A stretch of 28,488 nucleotides of DNA, taken from a virus. Shown in pieces: positions 1 through 23,967 of the stretch. The stretch's first letter is position 1. The number at the start of each line of letters is the position of its first letter. A model generated the notes under the pieces. That model worked only from the letters and a program-made list of their open reading frames with translations. It was not told where the DNA came from and searched no databases. A program made the position numbers and the translations under genes. The stretch lies in the UHGV virus genome UHGV-0289470. One strand, 5' to 3'.

Positions 1-120
1 GGAATGGCATCAGACATCAGTCCGATTAGTAGGGCTTTTAAGTATGCGCTTGATGAAATCACAAAGAAAAAATCCCCGGCCGCCACCGAGGATTTTAAGC
101 AAATTGATATGCAATTCTGA
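1..120 (+). CDS. cII: cII-like transcriptional activator, C-terminal fragment (5' end lies outside the window)
   Basis: Frame-1 ORF runs off the left edge and stops at TGA 118-120. Its tail ...ITKKKSPAATEDFKQIDMQF resembles the lambda CII C-terminus as I recall it (..KKRPAATERSEQIQMEF). Position immediately upstream of the replication genes fits. Confidence 0.6.
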   Translation, partial: GMASDISPISRAFKYALDEITKKKSPAATEDFKQIDMQF

Positions 121-143
121 GGTCATTACTGGATCAATCCACA
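64..143 (-). ncRNA. oop: oop-like antisense RNA overlapping the 3' end of cII; ends approximate
   Basis: On the minus strand, revcomp of 100-143 contains GATCCAGTAATGACCTCAGAA, matching the 5' part of lambda oop RNA as recalled. Revcomp of 64-96 forms a GC-rich hairpin (plus-strand arms 69-79 and 86-96, one mismatch) followed by UUUUUUCUUUGU, an intrinsic terminator reading leftward. A CATAAT -10-like hexamer on the minus strand (plus 148-153) sits just upstream of the predicted 5' end. Confidence 0.5.
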
Positions 144-152
144 GGAGTCATT

Positions 153-314
153 ATGACAAAACGTCGTAAGAAATACCAGGAAAAAGAAGAGATTCGACAC
201 CCTGATTCACCTGAGGGATTAGTGGTAGCCGCAGCAAATAACAGGGCGTTCGCAGAGCGCCTTGTTGGTGTTTACAGACTAGCCAAAGCAGGAGTGAAAC
301 ATGGGCGTCGTTAA
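153..314 (+). CDS. hypothetical 53-aa ORF (MTKRRKKYQEKEE...); possibly a recombination remnant rather than a gene
   Basis: ATG 153 preceded by AGGAG (143-147). The flanking sequence caggagtcattATGACAAA matches the lambda cII-O junction as recalled, but the reading frame diverges after three codons and stops at 312-314. Overlaps the predicted oop promoter region. Not in the ORF track (<60 aa). Confidence 0.25.
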   Translation: MTKRRKKYQEKEEIRHPDSPEGLVVAAANNRAFAERLVGVYRLAKAGVKHGRR

Positions 315-363
315 GTTAGCTGATTACAGGCATAACCCTGTACAACATCAGGAGGCATCCAGT

Positions 364-1191
364 ATGGGGTATGTCTCTATACACCGCCAGTTTATGGACA
401 GCAGGCTCTATAAGGACTCTCAGGCAGTACATCTTTGGCTTCACTTAATCCTCAAGGCTAATCACGAATCTACTGTCGTCAATACGGATATCGGGCCGAT
501 AACTGTTGATCGCGGTCAGATGATAACTGGACGCCCGTCGCTGGTCAGAGAAACATTCATCCCCGACAACAAAGTTCGGAGCTTATTACGGACTTTTGAG
601 TCGAAAGGGATGCTTAATATTTGCTCGATGGGGAAGAAATTTAGCCTGTTTACAATCTTTAAATATGACGATTTTCAGGCAAAAAATTGTCCAACGGTTG
701 TCCAACGGTTGTCCAACGCAAACACCAGTAATGGCGCGGCTCTCAGCGGAGATTGTCCAACGGTTGTCCAACGGTTGTCCATAAACAATAATATAAATAA
801 TATCTCTAATACTGACGTATTAGAGAGTACCGCAGCAGACAAAAAGTCTGACAAGAAAAAACCTTCCGTTAGCTGTCAGGATGTTGTCGATGCTTACCAC
901 GAAATCCTTCCTGAAGCGCCAAGAATCCGCGCACTGAATGACAAGCGTAAAAACCAGATCCGAACGTTCTGGCGCAAAGCCGGAGTGATAACCCGCCAGC
1001 TTGACGGGCATGGTTTCACGATGCAGGACTGGAGAAATTATTTGAGCTACGTAGGCGAAAATTGCCGATGGATGTTCGAAGAGCGCCCAAACCATCAACG
1101 CGGAACCGTCTGGCACAAAAAGGGATTTGATTTCCTGCTTAACGATAATACCTACCTGAAAGTTCGTGAGGGTGAACACGATGACCGATAA
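364..1191 (+). CDS. replication initiator (O-like replisome organizer with N-terminal winged-helix domain); the origin is embedded in the gene
   Basis: ORF track 301..1191. I prefer ATG 364 because of a strong AGGAGG at 350-355 and because the N-terminus MGYVSIHRQFMDSRLYKDSQAVHLWLHLILKANHE looks like the start of replisome-organizer N-terminal domains. ATG 301 is an alternative start. Iterons lie in the middle of the ORF, as with lambda O. Stop TAA overlaps the helicase start. Confidence 0.75.
   Translation: MGYVSIHRQFMDSRLYKDSQAVHLWLHLILKANHESTVVNTDIGPITVDRGQMITGRPSLVRETFIPDNKVRSLLRTFESKGMLNICSMGKKFSLFTIFKYDDFQAKNCPTVVQRLSNANTSNGAALSGDCPTVVQRLSINNNINNISNTDVLESTAADKKSDKKKPSVSCQDVVDAYHEILPEAPRIRALNDKRKNQIRTFWRKAGVITRQLDGHGFTMQDWRNYLSYVGENCRWMFEERPNHQRGTVWHKKGFDFLLNDNTYLKVREGEHDDR
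687..785 (+). repeat. origin iterons: two clusters of three tandem 11-bp repeats TTGTCCAACGG (687-719 and 753-785), followed by an AT-rich stretch (781-830)
   Basis: Direct read: ttgtccaacgg ttgtccaacgg ttgtccaacgc ... ttgtccaacgg ttgtccaacgg ttgtccataaa, then aaacaataatataaataatatctctaatactgac. This is ori-like architecture inside the initiator gene; the repeats encode the repeated QRLSNG/CPTVVQRLS peptide segment. Confidence 0.75.
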
Positions 1192-2617
1192 TTTTTATGC
1201 GCCGCCCCATAGCATCGAGGCAGAGCAGGCGGTGATTGGTGGATTGCTTCTGGATGATGACAGCAGTGAGCGCGTCCAGAAAGTTCTGGCGATGCTGAAG
1301 CCTGACTCATTTTACTGCCGGCCACACAAAATCCTTTTCGAAGAAATAACCAGAATGCACCGTGAGCAAAAGCCAGTAGATGGCCTGACGCTTTTCGATG
1401 AACTGGAGCGTAAATCGTTAACGGCGTCTGTTGGCGGTTTTGCTTATATCGCTGAGATCGCAAAGAACACGCCAAGCGCAGCAAACATCGTTGCCTATGC
1501 AATGCAGGTTCGTGAAACCGCAATGGAACGCTACGCCATCAACCGCATGACTGAAGCGACGGAATTGCTCTATTCCCGCAACGGAATGACTGCAACGCAG
1601 AAGTACGAAGCTATTCAGGCGATTTTCACGCAACTGACAGACCATGCAAAAACCGGATCGCGTCGCGGCCTTCGTTCATTTGGTGAGGTCATGGAAGACT
1701 GGGTTAGCGACCTTGAGAAGCGATTTGACCCATCAGGCGAACAACGGGGAATGAGCACAGGGATCCCATCGCTGGACAGGATGCTGTCACCGAAAGGTCT
1801 GGTGAAAGGCTCTCTGTTTGTCATTGGCGCTCGCCCTAAGATGGGGAAAACGACGCTATACAGCCAGATGGCAATCAATTGCGCAGTGCATGAGAAAAAG
1901 CCCGCTTTGATGTTCAGCCTTGAAATGCCAGGTGATCAGATACTGGAAAAACTGGTAGGGCAGAAGTCTGGTGTTAACCCGAATATTTTTTACCTTCCGG
2001 CGACAAATGACGCTGATGACGGCTATCAGGGTGATTACGATGGTGCCTTCAACAGGGCGATCGAAACAGCTAATCGCTTGAGTGAAATCGACATGCTTTA
2101 CATCGACGACACGCCGGGATTATCTCTGGCTCAAATCGTCAGCGAAAGCCGTCGAATCAAGCGAGAAAAAGGATGTGTTGGCATGATTCTGGTCGATTAC
2201 CTGACACTAATGACCGCTGAGAAGGCCGATCGCAACGACCTTGCTTACGGCATGATCACCAAAGGACTGAAGAACCTTGCCAAAGAGCTTGATTGCGTTG
2301 TTGTGCTTCTGACGCAGCTTAACCGCGCACTGGAAAGCCGAACCAATAAACGCCCATTACCAAGTGACTCACGAGATACAGGGCAGATTGAACAGGATTG
2401 CGATTATTGGGTTGGGATCCATCGTGAAGGCGCTTTTGATGACAGTGTTCCACCTGGTGAAACCGAACTAATCCTTCGTCTCAATCGTCATGGCAATACC
2501 GGTACGGTGTATTGCATTCAGGCAAATGGCGCTATTTATGACACAGACCAACAGTCTGCTGAAATTCGCCGCCGTGAACGCGAGGAACCGCAGTCCAAGA
2601 AGAAAGGGGGATTCTGA
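1181..2617 (+). CDS. DnaB-family replicative DNA helicase (P22 gene 12-like)
   Basis: ORF track 1166..2617; ATG 1181 overlaps the initiator stop. Walker A GARPKMGKTT, N-terminal DnaB-like domain (HSIEAEQAVIGGLLLD), length about 478 aa. Confidence 0.9.
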   Translation: MTDNFYAPPHSIEAEQAVIGGLLLDDDSSERVQKVLAMLKPDSFYCRPHKILFEEITRMHREQKPVDGLTLFDELERKSLTASVGGFAYIAEIAKNTPSAANIVAYAMQVRETAMERYAINRMTEATELLYSRNGMTATQKYEAIQAIFTQLTDHAKTGSRRGLRSFGEVMEDWVSDLEKRFDPSGEQRGMSTGIPSLDRMLSPKGLVKGSLFVIGARPKMGKTTLYSQMAINCAVHEKKPALMFSLEMPGDQILEKLVGQKSGVNPNIFYLPATNDADDGYQGDYDGAFNRAIETANRLSEIDMLYIDDTPGLSLAQIVSESRRIKREKGCVGMILVDYLTLMTAEKADRNDLAYGMITKGLKNLAKELDCVVVLLTQLNRALESRTNKRPLPSDSRDTGQIEQDCDYWVGIHREGAFDDSVPPGETELILRLNRHGNTGTVYCIQANGAIYDTDQQSAEIRRREREEPQSKKKGGF

Positions 2618-9404: not shown

Positions 9405-9690
9405 CGGCAGTACCACGAAGCAACCCAAGCCAGTAAGTGGGGAAATAACACTGGCAGCCACTGAAAGATGAACCTCCTGCCTTATGGCAAAAAAGATTCT
9501 TTGTGGTGGCGGACTGATGGAAAGACATCGGTTATTGCAGAGGCCATTCAATGAGTGGTCTCGACAATGGCTTATACCCTGCACGGGATAACTTAACTGA
9601 TATCCCTTTTAACGGATAAACGGAGCCAACAATGGCAGAGAATGTCGGCATTATGGCAGTGAAATTTGGATAAATCGGAGATTAGTACAT

Positions 9691-10041
9691 ATGCCGCCAC
9701 GAATCCCAAAAGCCTGCCGTGCTCGAGGTTGCCGTAATACCACGACAGACCCGTCAGGCTACTGCGAAAGCCACAAAAGCGAAGGCTGGAAGCAATACAA
9801 GCCAGGACAATCCCGTCATCAGCGCGGCTACGGTTCGAAGTGGGACGTTATCCGTGCGCGTGTGCTGAAACGTGACAAAGGCCTGTGTCAGTTATGTCTG
9901 CGTGCCGGGATGGTGCGTGAAGCTAAAACCGTTGACCACATCATCCCTAAAGCGCATGGCGGCACCGATGCAGACAGTAATCTGCAGAGCCTGTGCTGGC
10001 CGTGCCATAAGGCGAAGACGGCCCGTGAACGGTTGAAGTGA
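9691..10041 (+). CDS. HNH endonuclease associated with the terminase (HK97 gp74-like)
   Basis: Cys-rich N-terminus, HNH core ..VDHIIPKAHGG..N.QSLCWPCH..; immediately upstream of TerS. Confidence 0.8.
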   Translation: MPPRIPKACRARGCRNTTTDPSGYCESHKSEGWKQYKPGQSRHQRGYGSKWDVIRARVLKRDKGLCQLCLRAGMVREAKTVDHIIPKAHGGTDADSNLQSLCWPCHKAKTARERLK

Positions 10042-10067
10042 TAATAATTCTCAACTGCCTGAGGGGA

Positions 10068-10127
10068 GGGGCGGGTCAAATCCCTGCGGCCTGACGTCTT
10101 CCGGACTGCCCGCCCCATCGTTTTTTT
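10068..10127 (+). other. GC-rich imperfect palindrome plus T7 tract between HNH and terminase genes; terminator and/or cos-associated site
   Basis: GGGGCGGG (10068-10075) pairs with CCCGCCCC (10109-10116) around an internal GACGTC-centred sub-palindrome, followed by TTTTTTT (10121-10127). Confidence 0.4.
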
Positions 10128-10166
10128 ATACCCGCGAAAAATGAAATTTAACCAGGAGTGCCGCAT

Positions 10167-10661
10167 ATGGCTGGAACGGCGGGGCGTTCCGGGCGTCGCC
10201 CCAAGCCAACGGCGCGCAAGGCGCTGGCCGGAAACCCCGGCAAGCGAGCCCTGAACAAAGATGAACCTGTTTTTACGCCCATCAAAGGTGTTGAGCCACC
10301 AGAGTGGTTCGCTGAAGAAGATCTCCCTCTCGCCACGATCATGTGGCAACTGACAACCAAAGAACTCTGCGGTCAGGGCCTGTTGTGCGTGACTGACCTC
10401 GCGGTGCTTGAGCGGTGGTGCGTGGCCTATGAGTTCTGGCGACGTGCCGTGAAAAATATTGCCATACAGGGCAACACCATCACCGGTGCAATGGGCGGCA
10501 GGGTCAAAAATCCGGAGCTGACCGCCAAAAAAGAACAGGAGTCCGAGATGAGCAGCACGGGGGCAATGCTCGGACTCGACCCCAGCAGCCGCCAGCGTCT
10601 GATTGGCCTGGCGGGGCAGAAGAAAGCCACTAACCCGTTTCTGAAAATCATCGAGTCATGA
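10167..10661 (+). CDS. terminase small subunit (P27 family)
   Basis: ORF track 10158..10661; ATG 10167 after AGGAG (10154-10158). N-terminus [30 protein letters not shown] is typical of P27-family TerS. Confidence 0.75.
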
Positions 10662-12391
10662 GCCGGAAATCTTACCCCAACGTAAATGCTGCCAATCAGT
10701 ATGCCCGTGATGTTGTGCGCGGAAAGATTGTGGCCTGCCAGTTTGTGATTCAGGCCTGCCAGCGCCATCTTGATGACCTGATGGCGGAAAAAAGTAAGTC
10801 GTTTCGTTACCGCTTCGACAAGGACCTGGCTGAACGGGCCGCCAAATTTATTCAGCTGTTGCCGCACACCAAGGGTGAGTGGGCATTTAAACGGATGCCC
10901 ATCACGCTGGAGCCGTGGCAGCTATTTGTGATCTGCTGTGCGTTTGGCTGGGTCAATAAAGGGTCCCGGCTGCGCCGCTTCCGGGAGGTGTATACCGAAA
11001 TCCCCCGTAAGAACGGCAAATCGGCAATCTCTGCCGGTGTTGCCCTGTATTGTTTTGCCTGTGATAACGAGTTTGGCGCGGAAGTGTATTCCGGTGCCAC
11101 GACAGAGAAACAGGCGTGGGAAGTCTTTCGCCCGGCGCGACTGATGTGTAAACGCACACCCATGCTGACGGAAGCGTTCGGGATTGAGGTTAACGCCTCA
11201 AACATGAATCGTCCGGAGGATGGCGCGCGGTTTGAACCGCTGATCGGTAACCCCGGTGATGGTTCATCACCCCACTGTGCGGTGGTGGATGAATATCACG
11301 AGCACGCCACCGATGCGCTTTACACCACGATGCTTACCGGGATGGGGGCGCGACGTCAGCCACTGATGTGGGCCATTACTACTGCCGGGTACAACATTGA
11401 GGGGCCGTGCTACGACAAGCGGCGGGAAGTCATCGAGATGCTCAACGGCTCGGTGCCCAACGATGAACTGTTCGGGATCATCTATACCGTTGATGAAGGT
11501 GACGACTGGACCGACCCGCAGGTGCTGGAAAAAGCCAATCCAAATATTGGCGTGTCGGTTTATCGCGAATTTTTGTTAAGTCAGCAGCAGCGTGCGAAAA
11601 ATAACGCCCGTCTGGCAAACGTCTTTAAAACAAAACACCTCAATATCTGGGTGTCGGCGCGTTCGGCGTATTTCAACCTGGTGAGCTGGCAGAGCTGCGA
11701 GGATAAATCACTGACCCTTGAGCAGTTCGAGGGGCAGCCGTGCATTCTGGCCTTTGACCTGGCGCGTAAGCTGGATATGAACAGCATGCCGCGACTTTAT
11801 ACCCGCGAGATTGACGGTAAAACGCATTACTACAGTGTGGCCCCGCGTTTCTGGGTACCGTATGACACGGTGTACAGCGTCGAGAAAAATGAAGATCGAC
11901 GGACAGCCGAACGCTTTCAGAAATGGGTGGAAATGGGCGTCCTGACCGTTACCGATGGTGCAGAGGTGGATTATCGCTACATCCTCGAAGAGGCCAAAGC
12001 GGCGAACAAAATCAGCCCGGTCAGCGAGTCACCCATCGACCCCTTCGGGGCGACCGGGCTCTCACATGACCTTGCTGATGAAGGCCTGAACCCCGTCACC
12101 ATCATTCAGAACTACACCAACATGTCCGACCCGATGAAAGAGCTGGAAGCGGCAATTGAATCGGGGCGCTTTCATCATGATGGCAATCCCATCATGACCT
12201 GGTGTATCGGCAACGTGGTCGGCAAAACCATTCCGGGTAACGATGATGTGGTGAAGCCCGTCAAAGAGCAGGCGGAAAACAAAATCGATGGTGCAGTTGC
12301 GCTGATTATGGCGGTTGGCAGAGCCATGCTGTACGAGAAAGAAGACACGCTGTCTGACCACATTGAATCCTATGGGATCCGCTCGCTTTAA
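10658..12391 (+). CDS. terminase large subunit
   Basis: 577 aa, HK97-type large-terminase architecture (N-terminal ATPase, C-terminal nuclease); start overlaps the TerS stop. Confidence 0.85.
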
Positions 12392-12402
12392 CTGAGGTAA
12401 TT

Positions 12403-12585
12403 ATGATCATGCTGATTCTCGCGCCTCTGGTGGGCGTGCTGGGTGCGCTTTTGCTGGTGTATGGTGCCTGGCTGATTTATCCCCCGGCGGGGTTTGTTGT
12501 TGCCGGGGCGCTGTGCCTGTTCTGGTCGTGGCTGGTGGCGCGATATCTCGACCGTACACAGCCGTCTGTCGGCGGAGGTAAATAG
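12403..12585 (+). CDS. small hydrophobic (two-TM) membrane protein
   Basis: 60 aa, almost entirely hydrophobic ([26 protein letters not shown]...); GAGGT RBS. Confidence 0.4.
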
Positions 12586-13826
12586 TGTTCTTTTCGGGAT
12601 TATTTCAACGAAAAAGTGACGCACCGGTGACCACGCCAGCAGAGCTGGCGGATGCTATCGGGCTGTCATATGACACCTATACCGGAAAGCAGATCAGCAG
12701 CCAGCGGGCCATGCGACTGACGGCGGTTTTTTCCTGCGTCAGGGTGCTGGCTGAGTCGGTCGGGATGTTGCCCTGCAACCTGTATCACCTGAACGGCAGC
12801 CTGAAACAGAGAGCCACCGGCGAACGTCTGCATAAACTGATCTCCACGCATCCCAATGGCTATATGACGCCGCAGGAGTTCTGGGAGCTGGTGGTCACCT
12901 GTCTGTGCCTGCGGGGAAACTTTTACGCCTACAAAGTGAAAGCATTTGGCGAAGTGGCTGAACTGCTGCCCGTCGATCCCGGCTGTGTGGTACCGAAGCT
13001 TAACAGTAGCTGGGAGCCGATCTATCAGGTCACATTCCCGGATGGCTCCACGGATGTACTGAGCCAGGAGGATATCTGGCATGTGCGCACGCTGACGCTG
13101 GATGGACTGGTGGGGCTGAATCCCATAGCCTATGCCCGCGAGGCAATATCGCTGGCGGCAGCGACCGAAGAGCACGGGGCCAGACTGTTCAGCAATGGCG
13201 CGGTGACGTCGGGTGTGTTGCGTACAGAGCAGACGCTGTCAGATCAGGCTTATGAGCGCCTGAAGAAAGATTTTGAGGAGCGTCACACCGGGCTTGGCAA
13301 TGCTCACCGCCCGATGATCCTTGAGATGGGGCTGGACTGGAAGTCGATGGCGCTGAACGCCGAGGACAGCCAGTTCCTGGAAACCCGCAAGTTTCAGCTT
13401 GAAGAAATCTGTCGTCTGTTCCGGGTGCCGTTGCACATGGTGCAGAACACCGATCGAGCCACCTTCAACAATATCGAAGAGCTGGGGCTGGGATTTATCA
13501 ACTATTCACTGGTGCCGTATCTGACCCGCATCGAACAGCGGATCAACACCGGACTGGTACGAAAAAGTAAGCAGGGCGTTTATTACGCCAAATTTAACGC
13601 CGGGGCGTTACTGCGCGGGGATATGAAGTCCCGTTTTGAAGCCTACGCCACCGGGATCAACTGGGGAATTTACTCTCCCAATGACTGCCGCGACCTGGAA
13701 GATATGAATCCGCGTCCCGGTGGTGATGTCTATCTCACACCGATGAACATGACCACGAAACCCTCCGATGGCAGTAAAGCCGGTAAGCAGAAGGATAACG
13801 CCAATGCAGACGAAACAACGTCTTGA
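12585..13826 (+). CDS. portal protein (HK97 family)
   Basis: 413 aa; GTG start with GGAGG 6 nt upstream; position and size right for an HK97-type portal. Confidence 0.8.
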   Translation: MFFSGLFQRKSDAPVTTPAELADAIGLSYDTYTGKQISSQRAMRLTAVFSCVRVLAESVGMLPCNLYHLNGSLKQRATGERLHKLISTHPNGYMTPQEFWELVVTCLCLRGNFYAYKVKAFGEVAELLPVDPGCVVPKLNSSWEPIYQVTFPDGSTDVLSQEDIWHVRTLTLDGLVGLNPIAYAREAISLAAATEEHGARLFSNGAVTSGVLRTEQTLSDQAYERLKKDFEERHTGLGNAHRPMILEMGLDWKSMALNAEDSQFLETRKFQLEEICRLFRVPLHMVQNTDRATFNNIEELGLGFINYSLVPYLTRIEQRINTGLVRKSKQGVYYAKFNAGALLRGDMKSRFEAYATGINWGIYSPNDCRDLEDMNPRPGGDVYLTPMNMTTKPSDGSKAGKQKDNANADETTS

Positions 13827-14454
13827 TGTACCGCTGAGTCTGAAATCTGTCAGTGACTCCGGTGAGTTTGAAGGGTATGGCTCCGTCTTTGGTGTAAAGG
13901 ACAGCCACGATGATGTGGTGATGTCCGGGGCATTTGCTGCTTCCCTGCGGGCGTGGAGTGACAGAAAAGCGTTACCTGCGCTGCTCTGGCAGCACCGCAT
14001 GGATGAACCCATCGGTGTTTACACCGAAATGAAGGAAGACGATGTCGGGCTTTACGTCAGGGGACGGTTGCTTATTGATGATGATCCCCTCGCAAAACGC
14101 GCACATGCACACATGAAGGCCGGTTCGTTAACCGGCCTTTCTATTGGGTACGTCCTGAAAGACTGGGAATACGACCGGAGCAAAGAAGCCTTTCTGCTGA
14201 AAGAAATCGACCTCTGGGAAGTCAGCCTGGTGACGTTCCCGTCTAACGACGAGGCGCGGATCAGCGACGTCAAGAACGCACTGGCCCGCGGGGAAATCCC
14301 CGAACAGAAAAAAATCGAAAGAGTCCTGCGTGATGTCGGACTCTCCCGTACCCAGGCCAAAGCATTCATGGCCGGGGGCTATGGCGCACTGTCCCTGCGC
14401 GACGCTGAGGATGTGGGCTCTGCACTGAATGCACTGAAAAATCTGAACTTCTAA
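13804..14454 (+). CDS. prohead maturation protease (HK97 family, S78)
   Basis: ORF track 13768..14454; ATG 13804. Motifs ..GYGSVFGVKDSHDDVV..GAF.. typical of prohead proteases; overlaps the portal 3' end. Confidence 0.8.
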   Translation: MQTKQRLDVPLSLKSVSDSGEFEGYGSVFGVKDSHDDVVMSGAFAASLRAWSDRKALPALLWQHRMDEPIGVYTEMKEDDVGLYVRGRLLIDDDPLAKRAHAHMKAGSLTGLSIGYVLKDWEYDRSKEAFLLKEIDLWEVSLVTFPSNDEARISDVKNALARGEIPEQKKIERVLRDVGLSRTQAKAFMAGGYGALSLRDAEDVGSALNALKNLNF

Positions 14455-14468
14455 TCAGGATAAATACG

Positions 14469-15674
14469 ATGGCGGTTGATATTAAAGATGTCGAACAGGT
14501 CGCGCAGGAGCTGCAGCAGAAGTTTGACGACTTCAAAGCAAAGAACGACAAGCGCGTGGATGCGATTGAGCAGGAAAAATGCAAGCTTGCCGGGCAGGTG
14601 GAAACCCTGAACGGGAAACTCAGCGAGCTGGAAAACCTCAAAAGCGATCTTGAAAAAGAGCTGCTTGAGCTGAAACGTCCGGCAGGTGGTGCGCAAAATA
14701 AACTGGCCACCGAGCATAAAGAGGCGTTTGTGGGCTTCCTGCGTAAAGGCCGTGAAGACGGTCTGCGCGATCTGGAGCGTAAGGCATTGCAGGTGGGTAC
14801 CGATGAAGACGGTGGCTACGCCGTGCCGGAAGAATTGGATCGCAACATTCTTAACCTGCTGAAAGATGAAGTGGTGATGCGTCAGGAAGCCACGGTGATC
14901 ACCGTTGGCGGTTCCGACTACAAAAAACTGGTGAATCTGGGCGGCACGGCTTCCGGATGGGTGGGGGAAACGGATACGCGATCCCAGACTGCCACCTCCA
15001 GACTGGAGCTGATTGAACCTCTCATGGGGGAAATCTACGGCAACCCGCAGGCCACCCAGAAAATGCTGGACGATGTCTTCTTCAACGTGGAGGCCTGGAT
15101 CAACAGCGAGCTGGCAACCGAATTTGCCGAACAGGAAGAAATTGCCTTTACCTCAGGCGATGGCACCAAGAAGCCGAAAGGGTTCCTGGCGTATGAATCC
15201 ACTGATGAAACCGATAAGGTCCGGGCGTTCGGCAAACTTCAGCATATTGTATCCGGCGAAGCGACTGCGGTGACCGCAGACGCCATTATCAAACTGATTT
15301 ACACGCTGCGTAAGGCACACCGCACTGGCGCGAAGTTCATGATGAACAACAACAGCCTGTTTGCCATCCGTCTGCTGAAAGACAGCGAGGGTAATTATCT
15401 GTGGCGTCCGGGGCTGGAGCTGGGGCAGCCGTCCTCTCTGGCGGGTTACGGTATCGCTGAAAACGAACAGATGCCGGATATCGCCGCTGATGCGAAAGCC
15501 ATTGCATTTGGTAACTTCAAACGGGGTTACACCATCGTTGACCGTATCGGCACCCGCATTCTGCGTGACCCGTACACCAATAAACCGTTTGTCGGTTTTT
15601 ATACCACCAAGCGCACCGGCGGGATGCTGGTCGATTCGCAGGCCATCAAACTGCTGAAGATTGCAGCGGCGTAA
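14469..15674 (+). CDS. major capsid protein (HK97 fold) with N-terminal coiled-coil delta/scaffold domain
   Basis: 401 aa; the first ~100 aa are coiled-coil-rich (QELQQKFDDFKAKNDKR...LEKELLELKR), followed by a capsid core. Confidence 0.85.
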   Translation: MAVDIKDVEQVAQELQQKFDDFKAKNDKRVDAIEQEKCKLAGQVETLNGKLSELENLKSDLEKELLELKRPAGGAQNKLATEHKEAFVGFLRKGREDGLRDLERKALQVGTDEDGGYAVPEELDRNILNLLKDEVVMRQEATVITVGGSDYKKLVNLGGTASGWVGETDTRSQTATSRLELIEPLMGEIYGNPQATQKMLDDVFFNVEAWINSELATEFAEQEEIAFTSGDGTKKPKGFLAYESTDETDKVRAFGKLQHIVSGEATAVTADAIIKLIYTLRKAHRTGAKFMMNNNSLFAIRLLKDSEGNYLWRPGLELGQPSSLAGYGIAENEQMPDIAADAKAIAFGNFKRGYTIVDRIGTRILRDPYTNKPFVGFYTTKRTGGMLVDSQAIKLLKIAAA

Positions 15675-15681
15675 TCACTCA

Positions 15682-15702
15682 GGGGCGTGGAACCGCGCCC
15701 CC
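15682..15702 (+). other. GC-rich stem-loop just after the capsid gene (no U-tract)
   Basis: GGGGCG (15682-15687) / CGCCCC (15696-15701). Confidence 0.4.
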
Positions 15703-15723
15703 TGTTCTGACGGGTGAAGAATC

Positions 15724-15924
15724 ATGATCCTGAAACAAGATCTGAAATGGTCACCGGACGGTATGCGTGTTGAGGTCATTCGGGCCGGTGAGTATGACGA
15801 CGGGGCGCTTCCTGCCCGGGTGCAGGAGATTGCACTTCAGGCCGGGTTAGCAGAGCGCGGAACCAGTGCAAAAAGCAGTAAAGCGACAAAAGAGAAAAAA
15901 GCCACGACCAGTAAAGAGGGCTGA
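15724..15924 (+). CDS. hypothetical small protein with Lys/Ser/Thr-rich tail
   Basis: ORF track; 66 aa; sits between capsid and connector genes. Confidence 0.35.
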   Translation: MILKQDLKWSPDGMRVEVIRAGEYDDGALPARVQEIALQAGLAERGTSAKSSKATKEKKATTSKEG

Positions 15925-15926
15925 GT

Positions 15927-16250
15927 ATGCTTCTGACAATGGAAGAGATTAAAGCCCAACTCCGGCTGGATGAGGATTTCGATGCTGATGACCGCCATCT
16001 GCAACTGCTGGCCTGTGCGGCGCAAAAGCGGACGGAAACGTATCTGAACCGGAAGCTCTATGCTCCGGATGAAACCATTCCGGACAGCGATCCGGACGGG
16101 CTGCACCTGCCGGATGATATTCGTCTGGGGATGCTGATGCTTATCAGCCATTTTTACGAAAACCGCTCGTCGGTTACGGAAGTGGAGAAACTCGACATGC
16201 CGCAGAGTTTTGGCTGGCTTGTCGGCCCGTACAGGTACTTTCCGCAATGA
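15927..16250 (+). CDS. head-tail connector protein (gp6-like)
   Basis: 107 aa; N-terminus MLLTMEEIKAQLRLDEDFDADD.. is typical of the gp6-like connector family. Confidence 0.65.
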   Translation: MLLTMEEIKAQLRLDEDFDADDRHLQLLACAAQKRTETYLNRKLYAPDETIPDSDPDGLHLPDDIRLGMLMLISHFYENRSSVTEVEKLDMPQSFGWLVGPYRYFPQ

Positions 16251-16657
16251 AAATTCGTCAGGCGCAGACCAGCGCAACCTACATTCTGCCGGACCCCGGC
16301 GAACTGAATAAACGCGTCCTGATCCGCCAGCGGGTGGATATGCCCGCGGATAACTTTGGCGTGGAGCCTCAATACCCGGTTGCGTTCCGGGCATGGGCGA
16401 AGGTTATCCAGACCAGTGCCACCACCTGGCAGGAAACCGCGCAGACCGGAGATGCCATCACCCATTACATCACCATTCGTTACCGCCGGGGGATCACTGC
16501 TGATTATGAGGTGGTCTGTGATGACAGTGTGTACCGGGTGAAACGTCAGCGTGATCTGAACGGGGCGCGGCGCTTTCTGTTGCTGGAGTGTACAGAGCTG
16601 GGCGAATTTACGCAGAGTCACGGAGGCAGCAATGGCGACTCCCTTTTTGCACGTTGA
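16247..16657 (+). CDS. head closure / head-tail adaptor protein
   Basis: 136 aa; ATGA overlap with the upstream gene; position in the neck module. Confidence 0.55.
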   Translation: MKIRQAQTSATYILPDPGELNKRVLIRQRVDMPADNFGVEPQYPVAFRAWAKVIQTSATTWQETAQTGDAITHYITIRYRRGITADYEVVCDDSVYRVKRQRDLNGARRFLLLECTELGEFTQSHGGSNGDSLFAR

Positions 16658-17138
16658 TGTTCAGCAGCCCGCGGAGATGCGCTTTAACCGCGCCCGTGTC
16701 CGGCGGGCGTTTGTCACGATTGGGCAGCGTCATATGCGTGATGCCCGTCGGCTGGTGATGCGCCGTGCGCGGTCGGCACCGGGTGAAAACCCCGGTTATC
16801 AGACCGGACGCCTGGCTCGTTCGATTGGTTATATGGTGCCGAGAGCCAGTAAAAAGCGAGCCGGTTTTATGACACGCATTGCCCCTAACCAGCGCAACGG
16901 GAGGGGGAACCGGATGATCTCTGGTGACTTCTATCCGGCGTTTCTGTTTTTTGGTGTCCGGGGAGGAGCAAAACGTCGTCGTAGTCATCATCGTGGTGCA
17001 TCCGGTGGCAGCGGCTGGCGACTGGCTCCACGTAATAACTTCATGGTGGAAACTCTTGAAAAGAACCGCAGCTGGACACGCTATTTTCTGGCGCGGGAAT
17101 TGCGTAAATCACTGAAGCCGGAGCGACGACACAGATGA
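16632..17138 (+). CDS. HK97 gp10-like neck/tail-completion protein
   Basis: 168 aa, Arg-rich; CGGAGG RBS at 16621-16626. Confidence 0.5.
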   Translation: MATPFLHVDVQQPAEMRFNRARVRRAFVTIGQRHMRDARRLVMRRARSAPGENPGYQTGRLARSIGYMVPRASKKRAGFMTRIAPNQRNGRGNRMISGDFYPAFLFFGVRGGAKRRRSHHRGASGGSGWRLAPRNNFMVETLEKNRSWTRYFLARELRKSLKPERRHR

Positions 17139-17695
17139 AACTGACGCCTGTTATTGCTGCACTGCGTGCCCGCTGTCCGTATTTTGAAAACCGGGTTGCA
17201 GGCGCGGCCCAGTTCAAAAATCTGCCGGAGGTCGGAAAGCTGAAACTCCCGGCGGCATATGTTGTACCGGGTGATGATTCTCCGGGAGAAAACAAAAGCC
17301 AGACCGACTACTGGCAGGAGCTGAAAGAGGGTTTCTCCGTGGTTGTCATACTGAGTAACGGGCGTGATGAGCGCGGTCAGTTTGCTTCGTATGATGTGGT
17401 GGACGATGTCCGGCAGATGCTCTTTAAGGCCCTGCTGGGCTGGAACCCGGAGGCGTGCGGTAACCCGATTACCTATGACGGCGGCACGCTGCTGGATCTG
17501 AATCGTCATGAGCTGATTTATCAGTTCGATTTTTCGGTCATCAGCGAGCTGACCGAAGACGATACCCGCCAGCAGGATGACCTGAACAGTCTGGATGAAC
17601 TGCGAACGCTGGCGATTGATGTTGATTATCTCGATCCCGGTAACGGGCCTGACGGCGATATCGAACATCACACCGAAATAACCCTTCCTTCCTGA
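17135..17695 (+). CDS. tail-proximal virion protein (Mu gp37/DUF1834-like)
   Basis: 186 aa; lies just upstream of the sheath gene in Mu-like order. Confidence 0.45.
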   Translation: MKLTPVIAALRARCPYFENRVAGAAQFKNLPEVGKLKLPAAYVVPGDDSPGENKSQTDYWQELKEGFSVVVILSNGRDERGQFASYDVVDDVRQMLFKALLGWNPEACGNPITYDGGTLLDLNRHELIYQFDFSVISELTEDDTRQQDDLNSLDELRTLAIDVDYLDPGNGPDGDIEHHTEITLPS

Positions 17696-17703
17696 GGATC
17701 CTC

Positions 17704-17874
17704 ATGTTTGTCAAACCTGTTAAAGGGCGGTCAGTGCCTGACCCTGCCCGCGGCGACCTTTTGCCTGCCGAAGGGCGAAATGTTGACGAGAACAACTACT
17801 GGCTGCGCCGTGAAGCAGCGGGTGATATCCGGCGCGTGAATAAAAAGGTGAATACCGATGACGATAAGCTTTAA
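17704..17874 (+). CDS. small conserved protein upstream of the tail sheath (DUF2635-like)
   Basis: Not in the ORF track (56 aa). ATG 17704, stop TAA 17872-17874, overlaps the sheath start. Product MFVKPVKGRSVPDPARGDLLPAEGRNVDENNYWLRR... Confidence 0.4.
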   Translation: MFVKPVKGRSVPDPARGDLLPAEGRNVDENNYWLRREAAGDIRRVNKKVNTDDDKL

Positions 17875-19354
17875 CACCATTCCGTCGAATACGCTGGTTC
17901 CGTTGTTTTATGCGGAAATTGATAACCAGGCGGCGAATACTGCACAGGACAGCGGAGCATCGCTGCTGATTGGTCATGCCAATAACGGTGCAGAGATTGT
18001 TGCCAACAGTCTGGTGCTGATGCCATCGGCAGACTATGCACGCCAGATTTGTGGTGCGGGAAGTCAGCTGGCGCGTATGGTCGAGGCTTATCGCCAGACC
18101 GACCCGTTTGGTGAACTGTATGTGATTGCCGTTCCTGAATCCACGGGCGCGGCGGCAACAGTTACGCTGACGGTGACCGGCGCGGCAACCGAAACCGGCA
18201 CGGTGAATGTTTATGTGGGACGTACCCGCGTGCAGGCACCGGTGACCAACGGCGATAACGTCGCGACGATTGCCAGCAGTATCCAGGATGCCATCAATGC
18301 CGTTCCGACCCTGCCGTTTACGGCCTCATCTTCGGCTGGCGTGGTCACACTGACCGCGCGTCATAAGGGGCTTTGCGGGAATGAAATTCCTGTCAGCCTC
18401 AATTACTACGGCTTTGGTGGGGGCGAAGTGCTGCCAGCGGGCGTACAGATTGCCGTGGCGACGGGTACCGCCGGAACGGGCGCTCCTGTTCTCACCGGCG
18501 CGGTGGCTGCAATGGCGGATGAGCCGTTTGATTATATCGGCCTGCCGTTCAACGACACGGCCTCCGTTAACACGCTGGTGACCGAGATGAACGATACCAG
18601 CGGTCGCTGGAGCTATGCGCGTCAGCTGTATGGTCATGTGTATACGGCAAAGATCGGCACGCTGTCAGAACTGGTGACCGCAGGTGACCAGTTTAACCAG
18701 CAGCACATTACCCTGGCGGGATACGAAAAAGAGACCCAGACGCCTGCCGACGAACTGGCGGCAAGCCGTACCGCCCGCGCAGCGGTGTTTATTCGCAACG
18801 ATCCGGCACGTCCCACGCAGACCGGTGAGCTGGTGGGTATGCTGCCTGCGCCGAAGGGGAAACGGTTCACGATGACCGAGCAACAGACCCTGCTGTCTCA
18901 TGGCGTGGCAACGGCGTATGTCGAAAGCGGGGTGCTGCGCATTCAGCGTGATGTCACCACGTACAGGAAAAACGCTTACGGTGTTGCGGATAACAGCTAC
19001 CTCGACAGCGAGACGCTGCATACCAGCGCGTATGTGCTGCGCAAACTGAAATCCGTCATTACCAGTAAGTACGGGCGTCACAAGCTTGCCAGCGACGGTA
19101 CCCGCTTTGGTCCCGGTCAGGCGATTGTCACACCGGCGGTGATTAAAGGGGAACTGCTGGCAACCTACCGTCAGCTTGAGCGTGCGGGGATCGTGGAAAA
19201 CTACGAACTGTTTAAGCAGTACCTGGTTGTGGAGCGTGATGCCAGCGATCCGAACCGCCTGAACACGCTGTTCCCGCCTGACTATGTTAACCAGTTGCGT
19301 GTCTTTGCCGTGGTTAACCAGTTCCGTCTTCAGTATTCAGAGGAGTCTGCATAA
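17858..19354 (+). CDS. contractile tail sheath protein (Mu gpL-like)
   Basis: 498 aa; size and position upstream of the tube gene. Confidence 0.8.
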   Translation: MTISFNTIPSNTLVPLFYAEIDNQAANTAQDSGASLLIGHANNGAEIVANSLVLMPSADYARQICGAGSQLARMVEAYRQTDPFGELYVIAVPESTGAAATVTLTVTGAATETGTVNVYVGRTRVQAPVTNGDNVATIASSIQDAINAVPTLPFTASSSAGVVTLTARHKGLCGNEIPVSLNYYGFGGGEVLPAGVQIAVATGTAGTGAPVLTGAVAAMADEPFDYIGLPFNDTASVNTLVTEMNDTSGRWSYARQLYGHVYTAKIGTLSELVTAGDQFNQQHITLAGYEKETQTPADELAASRTARAAVFIRNDPARPTQTGELVGMLPAPKGKRFTMTEQQTLLSHGVATAYVESGVLRIQRDVTTYRKNAYGVADNSYLDSETLHTSAYVLRKLKSVITSKYGRHKLASDGTRFGPGQAIVTPAVIKGELLATYRQLERAGIVENYELFKQYLVVERDASDPNRLNTLFPPDYVNQLRVFAVVNQFRLQYSEESA

Positions 19355-19710
19355 TGGCCCGTATCGGGGGAACCTGTTATTTCAAAATTGACGGTCAACA
19401 GCTATCGCTGACCGGCGGCATTGAGGTGCCCATGAACAGGACGGTTAATGATGACATCATCGGCCTGGACGGTTCAGTGGACCGCAAGGAAACTCACCGT
19501 GCACCTTATGTCAAAGGGACCTTCAAGGTGCCGAAGAATTTTCCGGTGAGCAAAATCACCTCGTCTGATGAGATGACCATCACTGCCGAGCTGGCGAACG
19601 GTCAGGTCTATGTACTGTCGTCTGCCTGGCTGCACGGCGAAGCGAACCATAATGCCGAAGAAGGTACGGTTGATCTTGAGTTCCACGGTGAAGAAGGGGA
19701 TTACCAGTAA
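19354..19710 (+). CDS. tail tube protein (Mu gpM-like)
   Basis: 118 aa, directly after the sheath gene. Confidence 0.75.
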   Translation: MARIGGTCYFKIDGQQLSLTGGIEVPMNRTVNDDIIGLDGSVDRKETHRAPYVKGTFKVPKNFPVSKITSSDEMTITAELANGQVYVLSSAWLHGEANHNAEEGTVDLEFHGEEGDYQ

Positions 19711-19979
19711 TGAAAGAGCTTGAGTTAAAGAAACCTATTACTGCTCATGGCGAGACACTCTCCGTACTTGAGTTTGATGAGCCAACCGGGAAAGATGTCC
19801 GCGAACTGGGGTATCCCTACCAGATGAATCAGGATGAGTCAGTCAGACTTCTGGCGCATGTGGTGTCGAAATACATTGTGCGGCTGGCGAAAGTGCCGCA
19901 AAGCTCTGTCGACCAGATGTCTCCGGCAGACCTGAATGCAGCGGCGTGGCTTGTGGCTGGTTTTTTCCTCCAGGCCTGA
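19710..19979 (+). CDS. tail assembly chaperone (G-like, short form)
   Basis: 89 aa, immediately upstream of the tape measure gene; contains a slippery site near its 3' end. Confidence 0.7.
   Translation: MKELELKKPITAHGETLSVLEFDEPTGKDVRELGYPYQMNQDESVRLLAHVVSKYIVRLAKVPQSSVDQMSPADLNAAAWLVAGFFLQA
19961..19967 (+). other. programmed -1 ribosomal frameshift slippery heptamer T_TTT_TTC
   Basis: In the chaperone frame the codons are ..GGT TTT TTC..; a -1 slip enters the 19946..20128 frame, which stays open to 20128. Confidence 0.55.
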
Positions 19980-20128
19980 CGGCTGAATACCTCACTGATC
20001 GCTTCTTTGACTGCGCCAGCTACTGGCGCATTAATCCCTTCGAATTGCTGAATATGCCGATCAGTGAAATTCCCTTGCTGGTCAGTCAGGCAAACAGGAT
20101 AGAGCAGGAGAAACGCACACATGGCTGA
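19961..20128 (+). CDS. -1 frame extension of the tail assembly chaperone (GT-like long form)
   Basis: ORF track 19946..20128, overlapping the 3' end of the chaperone; ends a few nt into the tape measure gene. Confidence 0.5.
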   Translation, partial: FFPPGLTAEYLTDRFFDCASYWRINPFELLNMPISEIPLLVSQANRIEQEKRTHG

Positions 20129-21953
20129 ATTTGAGCTTAAGGCGTTGATCACCGGTGTCGACAGGCTTTCTCCCGCGCTGTCGAAAATGCAAAAGAAAAT
20201 CCGGGGATTTAAACGCCAGGCGGAAGAAGCGTCACAGGGTGGGCTGGCGCTTGGTGGAGGACTGGCAGCGGGGCTGACGCTTTCCCTGAAATCTTATGCC
20301 GATCAGGAAAACGCCGCTACCGGGCTGAAAGTCGCCATGATGGATGCGAACGGCGAGGTTGGAAAGAGCTTTCAGGACATCAATAAACTGGCTATTGGCC
20401 TGGGTAACCAGCTACCCGGTACAACGGCTGATTTCCAGAACATGATGCAGATGCTGGTGCGTCAGGGGATCCCGGCAGAAAACATTCTGGGTGGTGTGGG
20501 TAAAGCGACAGCTTATCTTGCGGTACAACTGAAAAAAACACCGGAAGCGGCTGCTGAGTTTGCTGCAAAGATGCAGGATGCTACCGGAACGGCGTCAGAA
20601 GACATGATGGGGCTGTTCGACACTATCCAGAAGGCGTTTTATCTGGGCGTTGACGATACCAACATGTTGTCCTTCTTCACTAAAACCAGTTCTGTTCTGA
20701 AGATGGTGAACAAGGACGGTCTTCAGGCTGCACAGAGCCTTGCCCCCATCAGCGTCATGATGGATCAGATGGGGATGAACGGGGAGTCGGCAGGTAATGC
20801 CCTGCGAAAAGTTATCCAGTCCGGATTAAGTGTTAAGAAAATCAGGGACGTCAATAAAGTCATGGCCCGCCAGAAACTCGGGGTACAGCTCGATTTTACT
20901 GACGGCAAAGGAAGTTTTGGCGGTCTTGATAACATGTTCAGGCAACTGGCAAAGTTGCGAAAACTGACCGACGTTAAGCGAACAGGCGTACTTAAGGCAA
21001 TATTTGGTGATGATGCCGAAACCCTTCAGGTGGTCAATGCCCTGATCGATAAAGGAAAGGATGGTTACGATCAGATCCAGCAGAAGATGAATAAACAGGC
21101 CAGCCTGAATAAACGTGTTCAGGCACAGCTTGGTACGCTGTCCAACCTGTGGGAGGCAATGACGGGGACCGCAACTAACGGTCTTGCAGCTATTGGCGGC
21201 GCATTTTCTGGTGACGCTAAAAATATCACGCAATGGCTGGGGGAGTTGGGGGAAAAATTCACGAAGTTTGCGGATGAAAATCCCCGGGTTATTCGCGGCG
21301 TCGTCGGGCTTGCTGCCGGTCTTGCGATTCTGAAACTGGGATTGATGGGCGTGGGCAGTGCCATCAGTATTGTCAGCAGGATTATGTCGATGACGCCGAT
21401 TGGCATGATTGCGACGGCGATTGCTCTGGCTGCGGGATTAATTATCACTAACTGGGATGTTGTCGGACCTTATTTTAAGAAGCTCTGGGAAACCATTGGT
21501 CCTTATTTTGAGGCTGGCTGGGAACTTCTGAAGAAAGTTTTTGCCTGGTCGCCGCTGGGAATGGTGATCAATAACTGGGGACCGGTTGTTAAGTGGTTTC
21601 AGGATATGTGGGACAAGCTGAAGCCAATTATTGAGTGGTTTACCGACAGTTCCGGTGACACGGTCGATGCCATTAACTCTGCGCAGTGGGGCGCGGGTGC
21701 TTATGATGCTTATGGGACGGGAATACCGACGCGGGGATACACACCTTATCCGGCGGTGGATCCGGCTCAGTCAAACAACGCCTCCGATGCCACAGGCTCG
21801 AATCCCTTCATGATTAACAAAGCTTCTGTGCCAAAAGTTGATGGTGAGATCAAGGTATCTTTTGTGAATTCGCCTCCGGGTATGCGGGTTATGGAAACGC
21901 GATCCAGCGGTTTTGATGTCAGCCATGATGTTGGCTATACGCGGTTCAGGTAG
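20121..21953 (+). CDS. tail tape measure protein
   Basis: 610 aa, Ala/Gly-rich helical protein with transmembrane-like central segments, downstream of the chaperone pair. Confidence 0.85.
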   Translation: MAEFELKALITGVDRLSPALSKMQKKIRGFKRQAEEASQGGLALGGGLAAGLTLSLKSYADQENAATGLKVAMMDANGEVGKSFQDINKLAIGLGNQLPGTTADFQNMMQMLVRQGIPAENILGGVGKATAYLAVQLKKTPEAAAEFAAKMQDATGTASEDMMGLFDTIQKAFYLGVDDTNMLSFFTKTSSVLKMVNKDGLQAAQSLAPISVMMDQMGMNGESAGNALRKVIQSGLSVKKIRDVNKVMARQKLGVQLDFTDGKGSFGGLDNMFRQLAKLRKLTDVKRTGVLKAIFGDDAETLQVVNALIDKGKDGYDQIQQKMNKQASLNKRVQAQLGTLSNLWEAMTGTATNGLAAIGGAFSGDAKNITQWLGELGEKFTKFADENPRVIRGVVGLAAGLAILKLGLMGVGSAISIVSRIMSMTPIGMIATAIALAAGLIITNWDVVGPYFKKLWETIGPYFEAGWELLKKVFAWSPLGMVINNWGPVVKWFQDMWDKLKPIIEWFTDSSGDTVDAINSAQWGAGAYDAYGTGIPTRGYTPYPAVDPAQSNNASDATGSNPFMINKASVPKVDGEIKVSFVNSPPGMRVMETRSSGFDVSHDVGYTRFR

Positions 21954-22016
21954 TGTACAAAATGATTAATGTGTTTTTGTCTGGCATAATTTGGGTTTTC
22001 AGCTTTAAGTAGTTAA

Positions 22017-22022
22017 TATAAT
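22017..22022 (+). promoter_or_regulatory. possible -10 hexamer (TATAAT) of a moron-specific promoter
   Basis: TATAAT at 22017-22022 in the AT-rich spacer upstream of the moron ORF; no good -35 hexamer seen. Confidence 0.25.
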
Positions 22023-22052
22023 CATTCCTTACAAATGATTGAAGGGATGATT

Positions 22053-22547
22053 ATGCGTATCTTTGTTTTTTTTATATCTGCACTTTTATCTTTTAACTTG
22101 GCTGCGGAAGAGTGTAAGTTCAGCTTTAATGAGTCAGAATTAATCTCTTCTATAGGTATTGCACCAGTTAAGCAAGAGATAATAAAGGATGAAGGAATAA
22201 CTAAGCGGCAATATGAATTCAGAAGAGAATTATCTTCTGAAGAAATGCTTAGTGATGACGCTGATGAAAAATATGAGCCGCAGTTTTATATATCTGTTTA
22301 TAATCCATCATGCCCACAAAAGGTTATTGTTTGGTTTTTCAAAGACAATAAAAACACAATGGATTTAAGTAATGAGGTCCTTGCTGGTAGAGCGTTCAAG
22401 TATTTAACTGGTGTTAATGAAAGTATTTTTGAAAATAAAATGAAAAAGTTTTTAAAGGTACAGTCATTTGAATCTTTTGATGAAAGGACAGATTCTAAAT
22501 TTATAAAGAGTGGTGATATTTATTCCATTGATGTTCAACTCAGATAG
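22053..22547 (+). CDS. moron-encoded secreted protein of unknown function (signal peptide, about 164 aa)
   Basis: ORF track 22035..22547; ATG 22053 after AAGGG. N-terminus MRIFVFFISALLSFNLAAEE is a typical Sec signal peptide. The ORF and its flanks are visibly AT-rich and the codon usage is A/T-biased, unlike neighbouring genes. Confidence 0.6.
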   Translation: MRIFVFFISALLSFNLAAEECKFSFNESELISSIGIAPVKQEIIKDEGITKRQYEFRRELSSEEMLSDDADEKYEPQFYISVYNPSCPQKVIVWFFKDNKNTMDLSNEVLAGRAFKYLTGVNESIFENKMKKFLKVQSFESFDERTDSKFIKSGDIYSIDVQLR

Positions 22548-22566
22548 TAATTAAAAATATTAGGTT

Positions 22567-22623
22567 CCCGCCACATCTTCTGCGATGTAAATAACTGACA
22601 AAGCAGATTTGGCGGGTTTTTTT
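22567..22623 (+). terminator. intrinsic terminator closing the moron
   Basis: CCCGCCA (22567-22573) / TGGCGGG (22610-22616) with a structured loop, then TTTTTTT (22617-22623). Confidence 0.45.
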
Positions 22624-22638
22624 GTATCCGGAGTTTAT

Positions 22639-23967
22639 ATGACGTGGAAAGACAGGCTTCAGGATGCGTCATTTCGCGGCGTACCGTTTAAGGTTGAAGA
22701 AGAAAGTGCGGGAACCGGTCGCCGTGTGGAAACACACGAATATCCGAACCGCGACAAGCCCTATACCGAAGATCTGGGAAAAGTCACTTTCCGCCCGTCC
22801 ATCACAGCTTATGTGGTGGGAGATGACTGCTTTGACCAGCGCGATCGCCTGATTGAAGCGCTGAATAAACCCGGTCCCGGCACGCTTGTCCACCCGACAT
22901 ATGGTGAGCTGAAAGTCTGTGTTGACGGGGAAGTTCGGGTCAGCACATCGAAAAGTGAAGGGCGTATTGTCCGCTTTGACCTGAAGTTTGTCGAAGCAGG
23001 AGAACTCTCTTACCCCACATCAGGTGCGGCGACGGCGCAAACGCTGATGTCATCCTGTTCTGCACTGGATGACTGCATCAGTGACAGCTTCAGCGGTTTC
23101 AGTATCGATGGTGTGGCGGATTTCGTGCAGAACGACGTCGTCGGTAATGCCAGCACAATGCTTGGGTATGTTTCTGATGCGATGAAAGTGGTGGATTCTG
23201 CCGTATCGGATGCCGCCAGGCTGTTGCAGGGGGATATCTCGGTACTTCTGCCGCCGCCATCGTCAGGCAAAAATTTCGTTGAGCAGGTGCAGAAAATGTG
23301 GCGTACCGGGAAACGCCTTTATGGTAACGCCAGCGACCTGGTCACCATGATAAAAACGCTTTCCGGTGTCAGCCTCGGCAGCGATCTGCAACCGCGCGGC
23401 GTCTGGAAAACGGACAGTAAAACCACCGCCACGGCGACGCAGCAGCGTAACGTGGTTGCCAGCACCCTTCGTACGACCGCAATCAGCGAAGCGGCGTATG
23501 CCGTCACCCGATTGCCTGCGCCAACAATTTCTGCGGTGATGCAGAATGCCGCAGTGGGGCAGGCAACAACACCCGCGCAGAGCACTGGCTGGCCTTCCGT
23601 CACGCATCCGGCACTGAACAATGCACCGGCGGTGAAAAACACGGTTGACCTGCCGACGTGGGAAGAACTGACTGACATTCGCGACACACTGAATACGGCA
23701 ATTGATAAGGAGTTGTCCCGTACAACCAGTGATGCGCTGTTTCTGGCGCTGCGCCGGGTGAAAGCAGATCTGAATGCGGATATCAACACGCGCCTTGAAC
23801 AGTCTGCACGGATCATTCAGCGCACGCCGGATGAGGTTTTACCCGCGCTGGTGCTGGCGGAGACCTGGTTTGATAACGCGGCGCGTGACGCGGACATTAT
23901 CCGGCGTAATGCCATTACACATCCCGGCTTTGTGCCGGTGATCCCTCTGAAGGTGCCAGTGCAATGA
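22639..23967 (+). CDS. DNA circularisation protein (Mu gpN-like)
   Basis: ORF track 22609..23967; ATG 22639 after CCGGAG. N-terminal motif ..ASFRGVPF.V...GRR...HEYP.RD.PY.EDLG.. is characteristic of the Mu N family. Confidence 0.75.
   Translation: MTWKDRLQDASFRGVPFKVEEESAGTGRRVETHEYPNRDKPYTEDLGKVTFRPSITAYVVGDDCFDQRDRLIEALNKPGPGTLVHPTYGELKVCVDGEVRVSTSKSEGRIVRFDLKFVEAGELSYPTSGAATAQTLMSSCSALDDCISDSFSGFSIDGVADFVQNDVVGNASTMLGYVSDAMKVVDSAVSDAARLLQGDISVLLPPPSSGKNFVEQVQKMWRTGKRLYGNASDLVTMIKTLSGVSLGSDLQPRGVWKTDSKTTATATQQRNVVASTLRTTAISEAAYAVTRLPAPTISAVMQNAAVGQATTPAQSTGWPSVTHPALNNAPAVKNTVDLPTWEELTDIRDTLNTAIDKELSRTTSDALFLALRRVKADLNADINTRLEQSARIIQRTPDEVLPALVLAETWFDNAARDADIIRRNAITHPGFVPVIPLKVPVQ

Follow-up and report, generated by a model that had tools for sequence, protein, structure and literature searches.

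The minus strand of the window between positions 142 and 66 very probably carries the oop gene of a lambdoid prophage or phage (we put the probability at roughly 0.85), in the sequence variant of HK97, HK106, and the Stx phages. The window is the whole stretch of DNA that was analyzed, 28,488 nucleotides of the viral genome UHGV-0289470. The oop element opposite the end of cII is a long-known antisense RNA gene of lambda-like phages and not a new one; few antisense regulators have been known for longer, and oop has already been described in print for HK97-like and Stx-converting phages. Work on the lambda OOP RNA was reportedly done by Krinke and Wulff in 1987 and 1990, as cited in PMC5869508. 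The original prediction, which read the site as an oop-like antisense RNA with its terminator inside the 3′ end of cII, is supported. We make the assignment because of a gapless alignment to lambda oop, the same place in the genome, an identical −10 element at identical spacing, a two-hairpin fold, a terminator stem that has been kept, and relatives in which the element is annotated. The oop homology, the position, the fold, the conservation of the terminator, and the identity of the −10 element were all computed here, and the features are collected in the table.

For the alignment, lambda positions 38200–39100 were taken, and 38675..38599 was used as the lambda oop RNA. The 5′ end of lambda oop is at 38,675, and its −10 element lies 8–13 nt to the right of this position (PMC5869508). 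The window sequence is identical to lambda oop at 60 of 77 positions with no gaps, and at 26 of the first 28 nt, with the 17 substitutions falling mostly in the half that codes for cII. The prediction had been built on a 21-mer of lambda oop, GATCCAGTAATGACCTCAGAA, and one exact copy of it is indeed present, on the minus strand at 135..115; in 100 dinucleotide-preserving shuffles, there were no matches with three or fewer mismatches. An antisense overlap of about 55 nt with cII had also been proposed, and an RNA ending at 66 does cover 55 nt of the gene when the stop codon (TGA, 118–120) is included. [quoted passage not shown] Position, orientation, length, extent of overlap, the presence of two hairpins, and the dyad at the start are all like those of lambda OOP (pO-oop-tO, 77 nt).

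Table. Features of the oop region and of the neighboring genes, in window coordinates.
Feature	Position	Strand	Basis or remark
Predicted oop RNA, 77 nt, 5′-GUGGAUUGAUCCAGUAAUGACCUCAGAAUUGCAUAUCAAUUUGCUUAAAAUCCUCGGUGGCGGCCGGGGAUUUUUUC-3′	66..142	−	gapless correspondence to lambda oop 38675..38599
33-bp “high homology region” or mosaic boundary sequence of lambdoid phages	128..160	.	one mismatch to ACTGGATCaATCcACAGGAGTaATTATGaCAAA
5′ stem-loop, RNA positions 1–44	99..142	−	minimum free energy (MFE) and centroid structures: 1–10 pair with 35–44, inner helix
tO intrinsic terminator, 12-pair stem, 4-nt loop, U6 run 72..67	67..96	−	terminator scan
pO −10 region, TGTCATAAT	150..158	−	CATAAT 155..150, TG 158..157 (extended −10-like)
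Candidate pO −35	173..178	−	TGGTAT at 17-bp spacing or CTGGTA at 18 bp; weak, read from sequence
CTG-N10-CAG dyad, CTGTGGATTGATCCAG, LexA-box-like, across predicted start	129..144	−	pattern search
cII, 3′ part	1..120	+	translation; window begins within the gene; ends ...KKSPAATEDFKQIDMQF*; oop overlap 66..120
53-aa HK97 gp53/Sf6 gp42-like ORF	153..314	+	ORF list; HK106, HK629, and Sf6 annotations
296-aa replication-initiator ORF with internal iterons	301–1191	+	ORF list
DnaB-type helicase	1166–2617		

The 77-mer is predicted to fold into a 5′ hairpin (RNA positions 1–44) and a terminator hairpin (47–74) with a U tail, at −27.2 kcal/mol and z = −3.65, and the MFE and centroid structures of this prediction are the same. 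The predicted fold of lambda oop has the same architecture (−28.5 kcal/mol), and two hairpins are likewise predicted for the third variant and for the P22-type RNAs. The 5′ stem-loop spans the complement of the cII stop codon and of the spacer between cII and the following ORF; its register differs from that of lambda, in which about positions 4–14 pair with 35–45. A leftward GC hairpin with a U-run inside the 3′ end of cII, as foreseen in the original prediction, was called on the minus strand by the terminator scan (96..69, then a T-run), and folding of the minus strand also gave a hairpin there (96..67, −16.8 kcal/mol). The hairpin was thus rightly foreseen, but its distance was not: it had been placed about 80 nt downstream of the oop-like motif, and the stem begins about 20 nt past the motif's end. 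A length of about 77 nt is what separates the predicted 5′ end (142) from the end of the U-run (66), where the RNA presumably has its 3′ end. The stem consists of a G-C core, CCUCGG/CCGGGG, lengthened by A-U pairs (the scan counts 5 of the 12 pairs as G-C), and differs from the lambda terminator stem by two swapped pairs and by the A-U extension.

Conservation of the terminator was assessed in an alignment of 124 copies, the window's own included, which came mostly from 120 viral-contig loci, were located by a pattern tolerant of a variable dinucleotide, and amounted to 33 distinct sequences. These 33 variants fall into four hairpin types. In the terminator stem, 98.5% of the pair cells hold standard pairs, compared with 37–58% when the partners are slid. 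Pairs 51–73 and 52–72 are altered on both sides, from C-G/G-C to U-A/C-G. These two adjacent double changes are probably a single evolutionary event, of modest statistical weight and thin as covariation support, and the count of pairs altered on both sides in the 33-variant alignment was not above that in shuffles. The changes are still informative because, between the lambda type and the HK97 type, they replace two residues in the C-terminal tail of CII (R to S and R to D). The protein sequence gives way to the terminator stem here rather than accounting for its retention, and the structure of the antisense RNA apparently constrains the sequence of the CII protein. It had been claimed that no protein ORF explains the structure; this holds for the hairpin, but part of the sequence conservation at 66–120 is explained by cII coding, since these positions belong to the cII frame on the plus strand. 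For the 5′ hairpin, RNAalifold, which recovered the terminator helix only, gave no single consensus register, because the lambda-type and HK97-type RNAs use different ones. This hairpin is kept through a shift in register and not through pair-for-pair covariation.

Some further observations concern the same stretch. The stem at 67–96 faces the cII codons for ...KKSPAATED.... Recombinant oop variants occur in the viral-contig loci (L009, L111, and others), in which a lambda-type 5′ end (GUUGAUAG) is joined to an HK97-type 3′ half, or the reverse. Reading of the sequence, without a folding run, indicates that both recombinant types can still form a 5′ hairpin, through GUUGAU/AUCAAU or GAUCCAG/CUGGAUU. 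A 38-aa ORF on the minus strand (126..10) is not a credible gene; it has no stop codon before the terminator, reads through it, and mirrors the tail of cII.

The −10 hexamer of pO is identical to lambda 38683–38688 and stands at an equal distance from the aligned +1. In lambda, a mutation in the −10 element of pO abolishes oop function (PMC5869508). Among the 124 copies, the hexamer is constant in all four upstream contexts, and the rare point variants are confined to the preceding TG motif. Upstream of about −19, however, the window is unrelated to lambda: the gp53-like ORF takes the place of the start of lambda O, and the −35 region of pO lies inside this ORF. The same point of divergence has been described for a lambda/P22 hybrid (PMC3349717). 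With the gp53-like ORF in place of O, the alignment shows no lambda −35 element TTGAGT at the window's pO, and the two candidates in this region match the consensus at 2 of 6 (TGGTAT) or 3 of 6 (CTGGTA) positions. A consensus promoter scan calls no promoter at the pO site, and the assignment therefore relies on homology to the mapped −10 element of lambda. A 45-bp lambda pO fragment with both hexamers had almost no activity and required another 49 bp of O sequence (PMC5869508); this upstream activating sequence has no counterpart in the window, and any strength ascribed to pO here is presumptive. P22 shares TG-n-CATAAT, as well as CCTGGT at −35, in an upstream context that is also not O. Given that an oop RNA was detected in P22 in this comparable context, oop is likely to be expressed in the phage studied here, with pO presumably firing from its present upstream sequence.

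The CCTGGT element is found 17–18 bp upstream of the −10 hexamer in both phages (window 173–180 on the minus strand; about 443–450 in the P22 locus, L124), the contexts being otherwise unrelated. The same letters also encode Tyr-Gln in both small ORFs, the gp53 type and the P22 orf48 type.

The CTG-N10-CAG dyad across the predicted start is retained from lambda, where it reads CTGTTGATAGATCCAG. A LexA binding sequence has been reported within lambda oop-pO (PMC5869508), and we infer that its exact position corresponds to this dyad. The dyad is part of a longer conserved block, 128–160, whose published counterpart, ACTGGATCaATCcACAGGAGTaATTATGaCAAA, has been used as a 33-bp high homology region to locate oop in lambdoid phages (PMC3349717). 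In the window, this block holds the oop 5′ end, the pO −10 element, the LexA-like dyad, and the Shine-Dalgarno sequence and ATG of the downstream ORF. In P22, ES18, and Sf6, similarity to the window query is confined to the block. It also marks a mosaic junction.

The closest relatives share far more than this block. HK97, HK106, mEp234, HK75, Nil2, and the Stx-converting phages are 95–99% identical across the cII 3′ end, oop, the gp53-like ORF, and the O-like gene, and the window differs from the HK97-group phages by point differences only; at RNA positions 18–20, for example, the window reads UGA and HK106 reads UUC. Over window positions 1–400, HK106 and mEp234 are each 98.8% identical, and HK97, HK629, Nil2, and many Stx-converting phages 95–98.5%. 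An identical 77-mer was found in three copies in the collected viral-contig loci, the window's own included. The layout cII-oop-orf-O was compared across lambdoid phages, including HK97 and Nil2, by Hayes and colleagues in 2012 (PMC3349717), and in these two phages, a 162-nt ORF separates oop from the O-like gene, in the order cII-oop-orf(162 nt)-O-like (PMC3349717). The records of HK629 and HK633 annotate a feature “similar to lambda oop” at the homologous place, but most HK97-group records have no annotated oop RNA. Reviews list oop in lambda and the Stx phages. The literature on oop in HK97 and the Stx phages consisted of reviews and sequence comparisons, in which direct transcript evidence was not found.

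Transcript evidence comes from other phages. The P22 record annotates oop together with its promoter and terminator, and a 63-nt oop RNA of P22 was found by small-RNA sequencing, with reads that start GAUUGAUCCAGU (PMC13397905); if this read start holds, the predicted 5′ end in the window could be 139 rather than 142. An OOP transcript is also annotated in the transcriptome of the BTP1 prophage (PMC7067206); phage BTP1 is not among the 60 P22-like matches listed. As in the window, oop and the replication gene of P22, Sf6, and BTP1 are separated by a small ORF, CCTGGT occurs in the −35 region, and P22 and Sf6 have the conserved start block and a hairpin with a U-run antisense to the end of the cII homologue. 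In contrast to the window, the RNA body and terminator of P22, Sf6, and BTP1 are unrelated in sequence after about 16 nt, and the RNA is about 11 nt shorter.

Other explanations of the same sequence have to be weighed. It is highly improbable that the hairpin has its function in the plus-strand RNA, whether to terminate rightward transcription or, as a 3′ structure, to stabilize the cII mRNA. A plus-strand RNA can also form a hairpin, which is followed by UUUUAAG, but at −11.1 kcal/mol; the G-U pairs of the stem favor the minus-strand RNA by 5.7 kcal/mol, and this strand-specific stability points to the minus-strand transcript as the selected one. On the plus strand, the stem is interrupted by a mismatch and the run is limited to four U, all of them within the stem, the lambda version has no T-run whatsoever on the plus strand, and the terminator scan calls the site on the minus strand only. 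The site is also 17 codons before the cII stop, so that transcripts ending there would contain an incomplete cII and lack the replication genes. The terminator form of the plus-strand reading was rejected on the energies and the missing T-run. A different possibility, which we consider unlikely, is that the site is an untranscribed relic of oop, in which 128–160 persists only because it provides the gp53-like ORF with its ribosome-binding site and start and serves as a mosaic recombination boundary, and the hairpin is kept by cII coding. Conservation of the block can indeed be explained in these terms as well, as it contains AGGAG-N6-ATG of the downstream ORF, and its counterpart is labeled “bsq5 boundary sequence” in the Sf6 record. 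The unconserved −35 element, the lack of a promoter call, and the loss of the extra O sequence that lambda pO requires would fit a relic too. However, the compensatory changes in the stem alter amino acids, which is the opposite of what coding constraint would lead one to expect, and the G-U pairs make the stem specific for the minus-strand transcript. Moreover, P22 expresses oop from a comparable non-O context that shares CCTGGT, and P22 and Sf6 have terminators of unrelated sequence at the same antisense position.

A similarly low probability is given to the proposal that pO-oop mainly controls replication, either by transcription near the origin or through the “inhibition phenotype” of oop plus iterons, and not cII. 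Acting together with the iterons of ori, lambda oop silences the replication of phages that have the lambda replication module, and its synthesis increases along with replication (PMC3349717, PMC5869508); the window, too, has an iteron-type origin about 550 bp to the right. Yet only phages with the lambda replication module showed this phenotype; a lambda/P22 hybrid was not subject to it (PMC3349717), and the window has an Sf6/HK97-type replication module whose iterons differ. A replication role would also add to the cII antisense role and not replace it, the RNA being by construction fully complementary to cII. As has been proposed for lambda, oop may have a lesser part in replication control as well. 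A broader evolutionary proposal starts from the modules of the gp53 and orf48 types. There, pO might have been rebuilt on an extended −10 element and a different upstream element (the shared CCTGGT) with the LexA-like dyad kept, so that oop expression and the bias between lysis and lysogeny would be wired unlike lambda in the many E. coli and Shigella prophages that have such a module, with the CII tail forced to co-vary with the terminator stem. This proposal is tentative, and we consider it unlikely.

If the site is an oop gene acting on cII, as we favor, RNA polymerase would start leftward at pO, using the CATAAT hexamer at 155..150 and the TG upstream of it, at about position 142. Transcription would run for about 77 nt, first through the spacer that separates cII from the gp53-like ORF and then into cII itself, over its last 55 nt, and would stop at the intrinsic terminator tO (hairpin 96..69 plus the U-run). 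[quoted passage not shown] As in lambda, RNase III would then cut the duplex, cII expression would fall, and the decision would tilt to lysis. The RNase III-dependent mechanism of oop on cII has been established for lambda only (PMC5869508). By analogy with lambda, we infer that both this mechanism and LexA control carry over to the phage studied here.

The value of the finding lies mainly in annotation, as the oop RNA gene goes unmarked in most of the closest phage records. A search of the whole window against Rfam at the gathering score gave no match. When positions 1–400 were searched at E values up to 10, eight weak matches to unrelated families were returned, the best at E 0.17 and all far below the thresholds, with no oop family among them; these look like chance similarity to a terminator-like hairpin. 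With no Rfam match, Rfam-based pipelines will not mark oop, which would help to explain the sparse annotation in the records. The first 3 kb of the window match, at least in part, 1719 of 5426 complete E. coli genomes. Given this match at the start of the window, the coordinates reported here could be transferred to related prophages.

The genes around oop are those of a lambdoid early region. The full-length cII of HK106 matches the Pfam family Phage_CII (E 6e-32), the tail of the window's cII aligns to that of lambda CII, and related records label the homologous genes CII, gp53-like hypothetical protein, and replication protein O. No Pfam match was obtained for the 53-aa gp53-like ORF or for the 296-aa replication initiator. 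From about 9.7 kb onward (about 9690–25000), the late region matches phages of the SfII/SfI/SfIV/SfV type at about 97% identity. With HK106/HK97-like matches in the early part and SfII/SfV-type matches in the late part, the window reads as part of a mosaic lambdoid phage or prophage, lambdoid-early and SfV-late. The matches in the late region are to structural genes of these myoviruses (terminase, portal, sheath, and tape measure).

In the replication module, the gp53-like ORF and the replication-initiator ORF overlap by 14 nt, the ATG at 301 lying inside the end of the small ORF. Within the O-like ORF, positions 686–830 have an origin-like architecture. Here, 11-bp iterons (TTGTCCAACGG) form two clusters of three, at 688–720 and 754–786, and are followed by an AT-rich stretch with a 10-pair inverted repeat at 803–826, which the scan lists as terminator-like.
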